From an uncultured Actinomycetes bacterium (GTDB lineage Bacteria; Actinomycetota; Thermoleophilia; Gaiellales; Gaiellaceae), in NCBI GenBank assembly GCA_963733845.1, contig CAVTEM010000007.1:420763-484762 (forward strand): a stretch of DNA of 64,000 nucleotides, read 5' to 3'. Shown here in pieces: positions 4,079-64,000 of the stretch; positions within the stretch are counted from its first letter, which is position 1; the number at the start of each line of letters is the position of its first letter. A model generated the notes under the pieces. That model searched no databases and was not told where the DNA came from. It worked only from the letters and a program-made list of their open reading frames with translations. The position numbers were made by a program, and so were the translations under genes.

Positions 4079-4177
4079 GCGAGTTCTCGCGGGCAGATTG
4101 TGACAGTCGGCGACGCGTTTCCGCGTGCCCGGCGGCGGCGAGACCGTAGTCGAGGCTACCGAATACTCTTCTGCCCG

Positions 4178-37027: not shown

Positions 37028-37585
37028 CTACAGGGTCGGCGGTGTGACCACGGCCAGCACGATCGCCTTGCTCTTCCCCAGGTTCCTGTAGGTGTGCCGT
37101 CGGTTGGCGCGGAAGTGCACGGTGTCGTGCTTCCGCAGGATGATCGGCTCGTGACCGTCGATCTCCGCCTGGATCGACCCGCGCAGCACGTGCACGATCT
37201 CTTCTCCTTCGTGCTCCGAGTAATCGGCCAGCCCGCCGCCCGGCTCGAAGATCGCGACGACCGGCATCATCATCCGGCCGTCCGTCTCGGAGGTGAGCAG
37301 GTAGACGTCGATTCCCTCGGCCGGCGACAGGACGTGCTGCCCGTCGCCGTCGCGAACCACGATCGGATCCTGGCCCGGTGACGGTGGCAGGAGGTCGGAC
37401 AGGTGCACGCCGTAGAAGGCAACGAGCCGGATCAGGCGCCCGATCGTGATGTCCGTCCGACCGGTCTCGACAAGGGACAGGAAGGACTGGGAGATGCTCG
37501 TATCCTGTGCGACCTGGGCGAGCGATAAGCCGCGCTCGCGCCGGAGCGCGCGCAGGCGCTCGCCGAGCTCAGGCTGGGCCGACAT
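37028..37585 (-). CDS. XRE-family HTH transcriptional regulator with C-terminal cupin domain
   Basis: The ATG at 37585 opens MSAQPELGERLRALRRERGLSLAQVAQDTSISQSFLSLVETGRTDITIGRLIRLVAFYGV, an HTH_3 region. The cupin-like part is ..GGLADYSEHEGEEIVHVLRGSIQAEIDGHEPIILRKHDTVHFRANRRHTYRN. Intact. Confidence 0.85.
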   Translation of the reverse strand: MSAQPELGERLRALRRERGLSLAQVAQDTSISQSFLSLVETGRTDITIGRLIRLVAFYGVHLSDLLPPSPGQDPIVVRDGDGQHVLSPAEGIDVYLLTSETDGRMMMPVVAIFEPGGGLADYSEHEGEEIVHVLRGSIQAEIDGHEPIILRKHDTVHFRANRRHTYRNLGKSKAIVLAVVTPPTL

Positions 37586-60568: not shown

Positions 60569-61459
60569 CACTCGAGTAGCGTGGACGTCGGCCCGGAGGC
60601 CAGCCACCGGGCGGCGCTGCGGTAGGCCTCGCCCCGCTCGCCGCGGAAGATCCGGCCGCGCACTGCGAGGGCGACCAGCATCAGCTTCCGGGCCCGCTCG
60701 GCCTGCCGCTCGCCCCGATGGTCGGCGAGGAAGCGCAGGTGCCCGCGGACCTGCTCGCGGAACATCGGCCCCCAGTTCTGCTTCGTCGTCGAGCCGCCCA
60801 CGTGCACCGCCTCCGCGCCCGGGAAGAACCAGACCCTCCACCCGGCCGCGCGGAAGCGGTAGCACCAGTCGGTCTCCTCGCTGAACATGAAGTAGCGCTC
60901 GTCGAAGCCGCCGACCTGCTCCACCGCCTCGGGCCGTACCAGCAGGACGGAGCCCATCAGGAACTCGGCCTCGCGCGGGCTCGTCGTGGTCGAACCCGCC
61001 CGCGTAGAACGCGTTCAGCGCGCGCGTCCTGGGCGCCAGCTTGCGCAGGAACAGGTACTCGGTCGCGATCCGCCACACGCTCGGGAAGCCCCGCACGGAG
61101 CGCTGGAGCGTGCGATCGGTGTTCAGCAGCCGCGGGCCGACGACGGCCGCGTCGGGATGCTGCTCGGCGAAGGCCACGAGCGCGTCGAGGGCGCCCGGCT
61201 CGAGCCAGGCGTCGGAGTTCAGCAGCAGGTACCAGCGCCCCGAGGCTGCCCGCATGCCCGCGTTGTTGCCGGCGCCGAAGCCCTTGTTCTCCTGCTCGAC
61301 CACGATCGCCTCGGGGAAGCGCTCGCGCACGAGCTCCACGGTGCCGTCCCGCGAGCCGTGGTCGACCACGACGAGCTCGGTGCCGGCCGCGCTCTCGAGC
61401 GCGCGCTCCACCCACGGCATGGCGTTGTAGGTGACGACGATCGTCGACACGTCAGGCAC
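60568..61459 (-). CDS. GT2 glycosyltransferase (rhamnosyltransferase/WbbL-like; one frame switch)
   Basis: MPDVSTIVVTYNAMPWVERALES..LVVVDHGSRDGT..EQENKGFGAGNNAGM..WYLLLNSDAWL. There is a switch near 60960 into ORF 60568..60957: MGSVLLVRPEAVEQVGGFDERYFMFSEETDWCYRFRAAGWRVWF. Confidence 0.8.
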
Positions 61460-62414
61460 GACGGACCGCTTCCCAGCCGAGGATCAGCGCGCCCGGGACG
61501 GCGAGCAGGAGCGTGACGAGGAAGAAGAGGAAGCCGGCCGCGAAGGCCGGCTCGGCGGCGACGCCGAGGTTCCCCAGGAAGCTGACGAAGAACGCCTCGC
61601 GCACGGCCAGCCCGTTGATCGTGAACGGCGCGAGCAGGACGACGAACAGGATCGGGCCCATCACGTAGTACGGCCGCGGCGACAGGTCGATCCCGACCGA
61701 CTTCCCCACCAGCCAGATCGGGAGCACGCGCACGGCCTGGACGACCACGGTGTACGCGAGCAGGCCGACCAGCAGCCACCCGTGGGTGCGGTAGGTGTGC
61801 ATGCCCTCGTACACAGCCCGCAGCGGCCGCTCCAGCCGCAGGTACGCGAGCAGCGGGCGCAGGCGCGAGAGCGGGCGGCGTGCCCGGCGCGAGAAGATCA
61901 CGACTGCGGCTGCGACCGTGCCGAGGATCAGCGCGCCCTCCAGCCACAGGTAGGCGCCGACGTCGTACTCCCCAACCGCGAGCGCGAAGCCGACCGCGGC
62001 CAGGATCAGCGTCGCCGCGCCCCCGAGCGCCCGGTCGAGCAGGACCGAGCCCGTGATCAGGCCCGTCTGCCCCGAGTGCCGGCGCGCGGTCTCGAAGACG
62101 CGGACCGCGTCGCCGCCGATCGAGGTCGGCAGCACCTGCCCGGCCGTGTACGAGACGAAGTACGTGCGGGTCAGCCAGCCGAGCGGCTCGTCGATGTCCT
62201 TCGCGGCGAGCAGTTGCTGCCACCGCCACGCGAGGAAGACAGTCGACACGAGCATGATCGCCGTGGCAGCCGCGAAGTAGCCCAGGTCGGCGTCCCTGAG
62301 CACCTCGAGCGTCGTCTCGAAATCGATCTTCCAGACGAGGTAGGCGACGCAGAGCCCGGTGACGAGCAGCGTCAACGAGCTGCGAACGAGCCTCCGCCGG
62401 GTCACGGCCGCCAA
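61452..62414 (-). CDS. Flippase-like / LPG_synthase_TM-type membrane protein, copy 2
   Basis: Intact 320 aa with a TTG start at 62414. It reads LTLLVTGLCVAYLVWKIDFETTLEVL..MLVSTVFLAWRWQQLL..YTAGQVLPTSIGGDAVRVFE..LLAPFTINGLAVREAFFVSFL. It overlaps the GT2 start by 8 nt. Confidence 0.75.
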   Translation of the reverse strand: MAAVTRRRLVRSSLTLLVTGLCVAYLVWKIDFETTLEVLRDADLGYFAAATAIMLVSTVFLAWRWQQLLAAKDIDEPLGWLTRTYFVSYTAGQVLPTSIGGDAVRVFETARRHSGQTGLITGSVLLDRALGGAATLILAAVGFALAVGEYDVGAYLWLEGALILGTVAAAVVIFSRRARRPLSRLRPLLAYLRLERPLRAVYEGMHTYRTHGWLLVGLLAYTVVVQAVRVLPIWLVGKSVGIDLSPRPYYVMGPILFVVLLAPFTINGLAVREAFFVSFLGNLGVAAEPAFAAGFLFFLVTLLLAVPGALILGWEAVRRA

Positions 62415-62435
62415 GGGTAGATGCGCGGGTGGCTT

Positions 62436-62455
62436 AGTAACAGACTGTTACTTGC
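62436..62455. promoter_or_regulatory. Palindromic AT-rich site, copy 1 (putative operator)
   Basis: AGTAACAG-A-CTGTTACT is a perfect inverted repeat centred at 62444. It sits within a 20-nt block, AGTAACAGACTGTTACTTGC, that is repeated identically at 62490-62509. It lies 22 nt upstream of the start codon at 62414. Confidence 0.5.
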
Positions 62456-62487
62456 TCCGGGAACGCGCCCGCGCCCCGAATCCGCTC

Positions 62488-62509
62488 CAAGTAACAGACT
62501 GTTACTTGC
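62488..62509. promoter_or_regulatory. Palindromic AT-rich site, copy 2 (putative operator)
   Basis: CAAGTAACAG-A-CTGTTACTTG has perfect 10-nt arms and is centred at 62498, 54 bp from copy 1. It contains the TAA stop (62502-62504) of the aminotransferase gene. Confidence 0.5.
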
Positions 62510-63623
62510 CCACGAGGCTCGCGTGCACCCGCCTCAGAGCTGCGACGGCGTCCGCGATGTCGTCGTCGGAGTGCGCCGGCGAGAGGGGCAGCGACAGGAC
62601 CTCGGCGCCCGCCCGCTCGGCCACCGGCAGCGGTGGGCCGTCGTAGCGCTCGCGGTAGGCGCTCAGGGTGTGCACCGGGAGGAAGTGGACGCTCGTGCCG
62701 ATCTGCTCCTCGGCGAGCAGGCGCTGGTAGTCGTCTCGCGTGCCGCCGGCGCGCTCCGGGTCGACGCGGACGACGTAGAGGTGGAGCGCGTGCGTGTCGC
62801 GCGGCTCGCGGGCGAGCGGCTCGATGCCGGGCAGCTCGGCGACGGCGGCGTCGTACGAGGCGAAGTGCCGCTCGCGGACGGTTCGGTGCACGGCCAGCTT
62901 GTCCAGCTGGACGAGCGCGATCGAGGCGAGCACGTCCGAGAGGTTCGCCTTGTAGCCGGGCACCGGGATGTCGTAGAGCGAGCCGTGGCCGCGGCGCATG
63001 ACGCGCAGGTCGTCGACGGCGGCGGCCACGTCGTCGCGGTTCGTGGCGACCAGCCCGCCCTCGCCGGCGGCGACGTTCTTCGTCGCGTACAGCGAGAAGC
63101 AGGTCGCGTCGGAGAGCCCGCCGAGCTTGCGCCCGCGATAGGCGGACTCGACGGCGTGGGCCGCGTCCTCCACGACCGGGAATCCGAGCTCCCAGAGCGG
63201 CTCGAGGTCACAGGGCTGGCCTGCGAGATGGACCGGGAGGATCGCCTTCGTCCGCGGCGTCACGGCCTCGCGCACCCGCGCGGGATCGAGGTTGAGATCG
63301 TCGTCGCGCACGTCGGCGAAGACGGGGCGCGCGCCCGTGTGGACGATCACGTTCGCCGTCGCCGGCCAGGTGATCGGCGTCGTCACCACCTCGTCGCCGG
63401 GCCCGACGCCGAGCGCGACGAGCGCGAGATGCAGCGCGGCGGTCCCCGACGACAGCGCGAGCACGTGCTTCGCCTCCAGGTACTCGGCGAACCGCTGCTC
63501 GAGCTCGCGCGCCTTCGGTCCGGTGGTCAGCCAGCCCGAGCGGATCGTCTCGGCGACTGCCGCGATCTCCTCCTCGCCGACCGCCGGCGGCTGGAAGCCC
63601 AGGAAGGTGTCCCGCCTAGCCAT
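62502..63623 (-). CDS. DegT/DnrJ/EryC1/StrS-family PLP-dependent sugar aminotransferase
   Basis: The ATG at 63623 opens MARRDTFLGFQPPAVGEEEIAAVAETIRSGWLTTGPKARELEQRFAEYLEAKHVLALSSGTAALHLAL. The gene continues ..ILPVHLAGQPCD..VVEDAAHAVES..GGLSDATCFSLYATKNVAAGEGGLV, which carries the catalytic Lys. Intact, about 373 aa. Confidence 0.9.
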   Translation of the reverse strand: MARRDTFLGFQPPAVGEEEIAAVAETIRSGWLTTGPKARELEQRFAEYLEAKHVLALSSGTAALHLALVALGVGPGDEVVTTPITWPATANVIVHTGARPVFADVRDDDLNLDPARVREAVTPRTKAILPVHLAGQPCDLEPLWELGFPVVEDAAHAVESAYRGRKLGGLSDATCFSLYATKNVAAGEGGLVATNRDDVAAAVDDLRVMRRGHGSLYDIPVPGYKANLSDVLASIALVQLDKLAVHRTVRERHFASYDAAVAELPGIEPLAREPRDTHALHLYVVRVDPERAGGTRDDYQRLLAEEQIGTSVHFLPVHTLSAYRERYDGPPLPVAERAGAEVLSLPLSPAHSDDDIADAVAALRRVHASLVGK

Positions 63624-64000
63624 CGACGGTGTCGAAGCGTATGCGCGAGGCCGCGTCCGCAGCGCTCGCCAGCGCCTCGTCTCGGCTCGGCCCGGAGACG
63701 AGCAGCGCGCCCGCGCGGTCCGGCCCGATGCGGAGCGGCCCGACCACGTCGCCCGCGCGCCTGTAGACACGCGCCCAGCGCACGCCCGGGACGGCCTCCG
63801 CGTCCTCGACGCCGCGAACGGCTGCCAGCTCGCCCTCCGGCGCGACGAGGAAGCGGACGCAGGCGCCGCCGACGCGAGGCTTCGCGCGAGGCGGCTCGAT
63901 CGTCCTCGCCGAGCGCGGCGGAGAGCGCGAGCTCGTTCAGGTCGACGCCGAGCGCTTCGGCGCACAGCTCGGCGTCGTGACCACCGCCGAGGCGGGCGGC
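63616..64000 (-). CDS. C-terminal part of a probable ATP-grasp-type enzyme (5' end outside window; at least one frame switch)
   Basis: The minus strand reads ..AELCAEALGVDLNELALSAALGE, then IEPPRAKPRVGGACVRFLVAPEGELAAVRGVEDAEAVPGVRWARVYRRAGDVVGPLRIGPDRAGALLVSGPSRDEALASAADAASRIRFDTVDG. The TAG at 63616-63618 overlaps the aminotransferase ATG region. Assignment comes from C-terminal pattern only. Confidence 0.45.

Follow-up and report, generated by a model that had tools for sequence, protein, structure and literature searches.

What do two identical palindromes do ahead of a polysaccharide-biosynthesis gene in an uncultured Gaiellaceae bacterium? They lie in a 64,000-nucleotide (nt) stretch of contig CAVTEM010000007.1 (assembly GCA_963733845.1, positions 420,763 to 484,762 of the forward strand), which we call the window and number from its first letter. 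A preliminary description, made from the letters alone, took them for a pair of operators at the head of an 11-gene operon. We conclude with high confidence that they are one doublet of a dispersed family of Gaiellaceae palindromes, inserted in the middle of an operon. Elsewhere, copies of the palindrome bracket the gene for a protein of about 97 amino acids (aa), which may recognize the site; we judge this reading as a whole, insertion and recognition together, to be reasonably probable.

The palindromes and their insertion site

Both copies of the 20-mer AGTAACAGACTGTTACTTGC are present on the forward strand as first described, at 62436-62455 and 62490-62509, with 0 mismatches and 54 nt from start to start. 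With three mismatches allowed, 0 chance matches to this 20-mer are expected (100 dinucleotide shuffles). The block is 40% GC (8/20), and the surrounding region is about 70% GC. Each copy is a perfect inverted repeat with one base at its center, and the arms of the second copy are 10 nt long. The motif had not been noticed elsewhere in the window, and the 15-nt core GTAACAGNCTGTTAC, with up to 3 mismatches, indeed has no further match within the 64 kb. The copies are self-complementary, so one can also pair with the other, through arms of 26 nt (62429-62454 and 62488-62513) that are 85% complementary. The features of the junction, in the direction of transcription, are:

63616-64000, minus strand: 3' end of an ATP-grasp (LAL_C2-type) gene, cut by the window edge, with an 8-nt overlap with the start of the next gene
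62502-63623, minus strand: DegT/DnrJ/EryC1-type aminotransferase gene (DegT), 373 aa, Pfam E = 1e-108
62406-62508, minus strand: the whole extra segment, about 103 bp, from the alignment of occupied and empty sites
62488-62508: palindrome copy 2, or copy A (promoter-proximal in the orientation of the genes), CAAGTAACAGACTGTTACTTG, with 10-nt arms and one central base
62455-62487: spacer between the palindromes, 33 nt and GC-rich; its orthologous copies are only 51% identical
62434-62454: palindrome copy 1, or copy B, closer to the downstream gene, TTAGTAACAGACTGTTACTTG; the perfect part is 62436-62452
62406-62433, minus strand: tail from copy B to the GTG start, 28 nt, containing TACCCT (62414-62419, minus strand)
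61452-62405, minus strand: downstream gene with an LPG_synthase_TM (PF03706) domain, 317 aa from the GTG at 62405

All of the genes around the palindromes are on the minus strand. The stop codon of DegT (TAA, 62502-62504) falls within an arm of copy A, and the final DegT codons, AAG TAA, come from this palindrome. Both copies had been placed in an intergenic gap, which is correct for copy B but only partly so for copy A. The downstream gene, described as flippase-like, had been started at a TTG at 62414. The homologous start, which is called in most relatives, is the GTG at 62405, so the gap is 96 nt rather than 87.

Are the palindromes at the head of an operon? Because the 3' end of the ATP-grasp gene overlaps the start of DegT, they are mid-operon. 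Relatives extend this. A forest-soil contig (L001) matches the window with 96.5% identity over 4.1 kb, and three other contigs (L002, L004, and L005) carry orthologous loci with 84-86% protein identity. In all four, the string of same-strand genes already starts four or more genes earlier, with GT2, epimerase, ATP-grasp, and DegT. The LPG_synthase_TM gene does head the glycosyltransferase/Wzy/PGT string downstream, and here the earlier gene list agrees with domain annotation: the rest of the string is GT2, a large membrane protein, GT4, Wzy_C, GT4/GT1, GT2, Bac_transf, ATP-grasp, and two PQQ-type propellers.

The junction is occupied in some relatives and empty in others. The segment of about 103 bp is present in the window, L001, L002, L004, and L005, and it is absent, along with the palindromes, from L003 (87% protein identity) and from L006-L008 (69%). 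In these element-free relatives, the stop of DegT overlaps the next start (ATGA or GTGA), so the palindromes are part of a lineage-specific insertion. A target-site duplication is not evident when occupied and empty junctions are compared. The genome of L003 has a palindrome elsewhere on the same 921-kb contig (locus L240), so the family is in that genome and this junction is empty. We propose that the doublet arrived in the insertion of about 103 bp, between DegT and LPG_synthase_TM genes that originally overlapped and inside a long co-directional string of polysaccharide-biosynthesis genes, where it now supplies the DegT stop and separates the two cistrons.

We then asked which parts of the insertion are kept, using occupied lineages that were retrieved via the protein and not via the motif. 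Mean pairwise identity is 78-84% for the palindrome 21-mers (arms plus center triplet), 78% for the tail, and 51% for the spacer. Differences among the palindromes are chiefly in the center triplet (GTC, CAG, GTG, CTC, or CTG) or are compensated; for instance, an A-T pair became G-C in L002, with a G.T intermediate in L004.

A dispersed family in Gaiellaceae

How widespread is the palindrome? When we scanned one genome per GTDB species (185,579 species) with GCAAGTAACANNNTGTTACT, at least 118 stretches matched. Among the matches listed, 116 of the 118 stretches are from metagenome-assembled genomes (MAGs) of 67-76% GC, nearly all labeled as Gaiellaceae, Gaiellales, Thermoleophilia, or Actinomycetota; only 2 are low-GC matches of the chance type. 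The flanks of these 116 loci are unrelated, save for groups of orthologous sites, and several assemblies give three or four separate contigs. Two or more copies are present at 46 of the 116 loci, with doublet spacings of mostly 52-101 nt. In sequence that was chosen without regard to the palindrome, independent elements number about 3 in 1.09 Mb, which amounts to roughly ten in a genome. The consensus of the family is GCAAGTAACA-N3-TGTTACTTGC; in full it is S-CAAGTAACA-[G/C/A]N[C/G/T]-TGTTACTTG-S, with essentially invariant arms GTAACA and TGTTAC. The dispersal within these genomes is a direct observation. A literature search found no link of Gaiella to palindromic repeats and no description of this motif.

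The positions of the copies are not those of operators. Among 108 elements, as classified with a crude open reading frame (ORF) caller based on GC content at third codon positions (GC3), 40 are between tandem genes, 26 between convergent genes, 6 between divergent genes, and 34 inside ORFs (23 of them deep inside), with 2 unclassified. The excess of convergent over divergent positions is significant (binomial p = 5e-4). A gene's TAA stop lies within the palindrome in 17 elements, and in 4 cases this is true of both convergent genes. Translation and Pfam identify in-frame copies in polA (three species), dnaE, mfd, purL, a Ser/Thr kinase, and a GCS2 ligase; a loop of biotin carboxylase contains an in-frame single copy in two species and a 25-codon doublet in others. 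At operon junctions, the palindrome is often 8-20 nt ahead of a GGAGG site or a start codon, which leaves no room for a promoter. This distribution fits a tolerated or selfish repeat, not promoter operators. When 738 ORFs from the 116 loci were clustered all against all, the only groups were of housekeeping orthologues, with no transposase among them, and the doublet spacers share no similarity among themselves.

Three of the matching loci are unusual in other ways. In a long-read MAG (L172, 2224-2299), the biotin carboxylase doublet is 55 nt, not 54, and the frame is broken, either by a sequencing indel or because the gene is truly split. A contig labeled as Longimicrobiaceae (L220, JBJMPM010000031.1) is 72% GC and has the Gaiellaceae palindrome in frame in purL, as L215 does; it may be mis-binned. 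One of the low-GC matches, from an Ignavibacteria MAG (L146, 5950-6090), is a tandem array of 61-nt units, each with AGTAACAGAGTGTTACT. This array is a different kind of repeat, with a core that is shared by chance or convergence.

A small protein gene bracketed by palindromes

Is there a protein that goes with the palindrome? At five loci, palindromes 370-384 nt apart surround one small ORF, which encodes the 97-aa protein. We tested this association in 80 metagenome loci that were fetched with a protein profile and were unselected for the palindrome. A palindrome ends 46-72 nt upstream of the gene's start in 73 of 74 cases and lies 3-50 nt past its stop in 67 of 74; the gene is bracketed on both sides in 62 of 68. 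These 292 kb contain only 1 other palindrome. The gene was found in at least 14-18 different neighborhoods, a few of them common, which indicates mostly vertical inheritance with relocation.

At 90% identity the family forms 353 clusters, and at 50% it forms 395. A typical member has about 97 aa; the annotation is always hypothetical, and the sources are of the Gaiellaceae type. In a profile search of 1.84 billion representatives, those listed are all small stand-alone proteins (57-185 aa), and none is fused to a catalytic domain. The AlphaFold model has five helices (predicted local distance difference test [pLDDT] score of 82.5), and the invariant residues include an RPSY motif, many arginines, and a single His. 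The leader of the gene keeps a hexamer, [GC]ACA[CG]T, 7 nt ahead of the start codon. The profile and domain searches hit only VapB (E = 0.028), far short of its cutoff, and designed helical repeats (E ~ 1e-3). We also considered whether protein and site vary together: at three loci with GTGACA/TGTCAC sites, Arg replaces N, C, Y, or S in "IAExxRR." Only two distinct proteins have such sites, so no conclusion can be drawn. Separately, in the leaders of L247-L329, a second inverted repeat (GTCAC-N6-GTGAC / CGTGACACTCACG) lies about 20-45 nt upstream of the 97-aa start, between the upstream palindrome and the -10-like hexamer, and its half-sites resemble the GTGACA variant of the palindrome.

If the palindrome is recognized, its symmetry and spacing might be kept. 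In a set of 116 distinct 27-mers from around the 97-aa genes, double-sided changes number 133, versus 67.8 +/- 6.6 in shuffles (0/500). Positions +/-11 and +/-12 vary and are still complementary in about 60% of copies, and the +/-1 positions beside the single central base covary, even though they cannot pair in a hairpin. Given the double-sided changes and the covarying +/-1 positions, it is the symmetry itself that is kept, which suggests that selection or a copying mechanism maintains it over a sequence-specific inner core. As for spacing, 36 doublets remained independent after orthologous sites were merged, and they cluster at 52-56 nt (13 doublets), 66-67 nt (5), and 75-78 nt (8), with a looser group at 80-89 nt. 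The periodicity is significant at a period of 11 (Rayleigh p ~4e-4) and at 10.5 (p = 1e-3), in a post hoc test in which several periods were tried. Arm conservation, arm covariation, and steps of about 11 bp suggest a specifically recognized, symmetry-maintained site.

We propose that the palindrome is the specific nucleic-acid target of the five-helix protein. The invariant inner arms would be read by sequence, while the outer arms and the center would be held symmetric. Copies would preferentially lie whole helical turns apart, as would be expected if two dimers were bound to one face of the DNA, and pairs may be bound cooperatively by this protein. At the locus in the window, a bound doublet could act on downstream genes as a roadblock, as an mRNA hairpin, or by controlling an internal promoter. 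The preliminary idea of a dimeric regulator survives in part: specific, probably dimeric recognition is still plausible, as is the role of the 54-bp spacing, but a dedicated switch for the operon is not.

More speculatively, the palindrome and the 97-aa protein could form an undescribed two-component system of the Gaiellaceae, with a minimal helical protein and about ten symmetric sites per genome, some of them in frame in polA, dnaE, mfd, and purL, and two of them around the protein's own gene. This might be a minimal element of a new kind, mobile or "domesticated," whose partner is not of the HUH type, or else a chromosome-level system of sites (for organization, roadblocks, or recombination). 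We regard this as a tentative possibility.

Several results count against recognition by the 97-aa protein or against mobility. The protein has no relative in Pfam (E <= 1), NCBIfam, PHROG, PADLOC, or the sequences of the PDB; Foldseek found nothing significant in the PDB (the best hit, a chain of the TnsABCD transpososome, has E = 2); and the gene is absent from the window. We identified no transposase, target-site duplication, or excision product. The copy number is low, unlike that of classical REP families, and the copies of a doublet usually carry one and the same center triplet in direct orientation (28 direct, 8 inverted, and 11 different, as judged by the central base). The sites from the genome scan were found by exact match, which fixed or favored the core, and their arm conservation is not independent evidence. 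The reliance of the position classes on a crude ORF caller and the post hoc nature of the periodicity test belong here as well.

Alternative explanations and known systems

Could the element act as RNA, without a dedicated protein? Intercistronic stem-loops (two hairpins or one long one) might stabilize the upstream mRNA, reduce read-through, or affect how the next cistron is translated, much as REP sequences act within operons of E. coli. A hairpin had been thought to be excluded by the 1-nt spacer between the arms, but both copies fold with 3-nt loops, on stems of 9 bp and 7 bp (-9.3 and -6.3 kcal/mol), and the hairpin of the family consensus is more stable (-11.3 kcal/mol, z = -5.3). The long-range pairing of the copies also fits, as do the compensatory changes that preserve arm pairing (including the variants in L002 and L004) and the bias towards 3' ends and operon junctions, often right before a ribosome-binding site. 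However, the inner arms are conserved in sequence, beyond what pairing would require, and the covarying +/-1 positions are unpairable. A scan of the locus for intrinsic terminators found none (the stems are AU-rich and are not followed by a T-run, or U-tract), and no Rfam covariance model matched at E <= 1. Copies that terminate transcription inside polA, dnaE, or mfd would be harmful, and an RNA-level role leaves the bracketing of one protein gene unexplained. We consider it unlikely.

The operator pair of the preliminary description is slightly more doubtful. In this account, cooperative binding of a dimeric transcription factor to one face of the DNA would control a promoter that serves the string from 62405 to 49423. 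Perfect palindromes with invariant inner arms are what such a factor would bind, and the 54-bp spacing is within the family's preference for about 55, 66, or 77 nt. The tail offers some support as well: TACCCT sits 8 nt ahead of the GTG and is kept as TAC[CT]CT in all 5 of 5 occupied loci, in a tail that is 78% conserved while the spacer is not, and the geometry of the tail resembles that of the hexamer 7 nt before the 97-aa gene. This motif is a possible -10 element of the leaderless type. If transcription started at or beside the GTG, copy B would be centered near -39, and such an internal promoter might rescue part of the operator idea. The motif is locus-specific: it is absent from other doublets that adjoin downstream genes. 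Against a promoter, same-strand genes upstream run into the element with overlapping stops and starts, and a scan of the locus for sigma-70-like promoters detected none. The palindrome is also found where a promoter would be out of place, namely at convergent gene ends, within essential genes, and 8-20 nt ahead of a ribosome-binding site or start codon. Furthermore, the insertion is missing from close relatives whose operon is otherwise identical. No regulator gene is adjacent, and nothing links the XRE-cupin gene (37028-37585), which had been put forward for binding assays, to the motif. A genome-wide search had been proposed as a way to define a regulon, with a dispersed repeat in unrelated regions named as the refuting outcome; our wide search returned a dispersed repeat in unrelated contexts.

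Least likely is that the doublet is a dead, MITE-like (miniature inverted-repeat transposable element) remnant without a function here: the presence/absence polymorphism of about 103 bp, the unconserved spacer, and the toleration of copies in protein loops and linkers, as with selfish in-frame elements, would fit, but at 84-87% protein identity the palindrome 21-mers still agree at 78-84% and the decayed spacer at 51%, covariation preserves the symmetry, the spacing is quantized, and no transposase, separate terminal inverted repeats, or target-site duplications were found.

We also dropped two other ideas. The BldD box (TNAC-N5-GTNA), at which BldD binds ahead of developmental genes, formally matches TAAC-AGACT-GTTA, but there is no supporting context, and the dispersed, intragenic, and 3'-end distribution speaks against a classical regulon. 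And a phage origin was not borne out by a scan of viral contigs with the 14-base core, which returned mostly low-GC chance matches and unrelated phage palindromes and gave no link to Gaiellaceae phages.

Which known system is most similar to a dispersed palindrome that is recognized by a small protein? The closest is REP/REPIN-RAYT, which occurs in Pseudomonas and Enterobacteria (PMC3337134, PMC3116915). As in that system, short palindromes are dispersed in one lineage, often as doublets (about 75-110 bp) whose spacers are all different; the doublet can fold into a long hairpin; copies are found at operon junctions and 3' ends; and repeats flank a small gene that is mostly inherited vertically. 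A REP doublet is two inverted REPs that form a hairpin (PMC3337134). The units of a Gaiellaceae doublet are self-complementary and perfect to a single central base, and judged by that base they are mostly direct. A Gaiellaceae genome has about ten elements, where REPs number in the hundreds. While REPs are predominantly extragenic, 34 of our 108 elements are inside predicted ORFs, with about a fifth of the elements deep in frame. RAYT genes are about 500 bp, but the gene flanked by our repeats is a 97-aa all-helical orphan without a Y1/HUH match. It lacks the features of RAYT (IS200-like Y1, with HUH and Y motifs), and as it has no Pfam match at E <= 1, it has no match to PF01797; this concerns the flanked gene, as RAYTs elsewhere in these genomes were not searched for.

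Other systems are less close. A MITE would have terminal inverted repeats, a target-site duplication, and an autonomous parent that encodes a transposase; here, the only recurrent flanked gene has no transposase signature, and no target-site duplication is evident. Pairs of transcription-factor operators share the helical phasing (54 nt here, and the family's clusters, by a post hoc test) but not the location ahead of a transcription unit's first gene, nor are the palindromes confined to a regulon's promoters. Rickettsia palindromic elements (RPE), reportedly described by Ogata et al. in 2000, are 100-150 bp and are AT-rich in an AT-rich genome; they are tolerated in frame in conserved genes, where they add or replace peptide segments at the protein's surface. 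We know of no partner protein for RPE. The Gaiellaceae palindromes are similarly tolerated in frame within conserved protein-coding genes, but they are mostly single palindromes of 21-23 nt in a 70% GC genome, and there is no sequence relationship. Comparable, too, are the parS-ParB and matS-MatP systems: near-perfect palindromes number from a few to tens in each genome, genes tolerate them in their interior, their positions are conserved among orthologues, and the gene for the binding protein is beside its own site. In contrast, the Gaiellaceae sites arrive as insertions with spacers and are polymorphic between close relatives, and we found neither ParB nor MatP to be homologous to the 97-aa protein.

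The paired repressor operators of phages and plasmids are similar in their same-face spacing: a viral contig (L056) has GTAACA-N3-TGTTAC pairs about 41 nt apart. However, the palindromes in the window lack a promoter context and a neighboring repressor, and cellular genomes carry the motif at dispersed sites. In L056 (55% GC), two AGTAACA-N3-TGTTACT sites (2236-2293) are directly upstream of an ATG, and a third site is at 4130-4146; this is a classical layout of paired operators that uses the same core palindrome. In IMG/VR contigs of 1.5-12 kb and about 35-41% GC, a conserved palindrome, TTTTATCAGTAGTAACAATTTGTTACTCAAGTC, is about 35-50 nt from the contig end, beside a terminal GC hairpin. 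We checked the palindrome in the near-end contigs (L015, L030-L032, L044, L045, L051, L080, and L122); for the far-end group (L049, L054, L057, L071, L077, L087, L124, and L125), the assignment is by motif position only. This looks like a conserved terminal element of a family of small phages and is unrelated to the Gaiellaceae repeat.

If the palindromes are a dispersed family with an associated protein, then what follows? They do not serve the polysaccharide operon as a dedicated switch, so experiments on a regulon or promoter that start from that premise would probably fail. The family is a lineage marker for uncultured soil Gaiellaceae, and it is a cautionary case, as the repeat furnishes stop codons and in-frame peptides in essential genes. 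The perfectly conserved palindrome and the orphan 97-aa family make a testable pair, with a REPIN-RAYT-like logic but without a recognizable transposase. If the protein does bind the site, then the upkeep of such repeats would become experimentally accessible in a new phylum-level context.

Two observations concern the upstream side of the operon. In the window, the frame of the ATP-grasp gene (63616-64000, minus strand) has an in-frame stop about 320 nt upstream, and another frame looks coding further up. In L001, the ATP-grasp gene is one intact ORF of 394 aa, and the window's version could reflect a frameshift or an error of assembly. All of the relatives also have, about 5 kb ahead of the operon and just beyond the window, a TetR-family regulator paired with an MFS transporter (L001, 1705-3735; L002, 2705-4738; L004, 2538-4570; L006, 1890-3936), along with a second DegT/epimerase set. 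The TetR/MFS pair contains the regulator genes nearest to the polysaccharide cluster.

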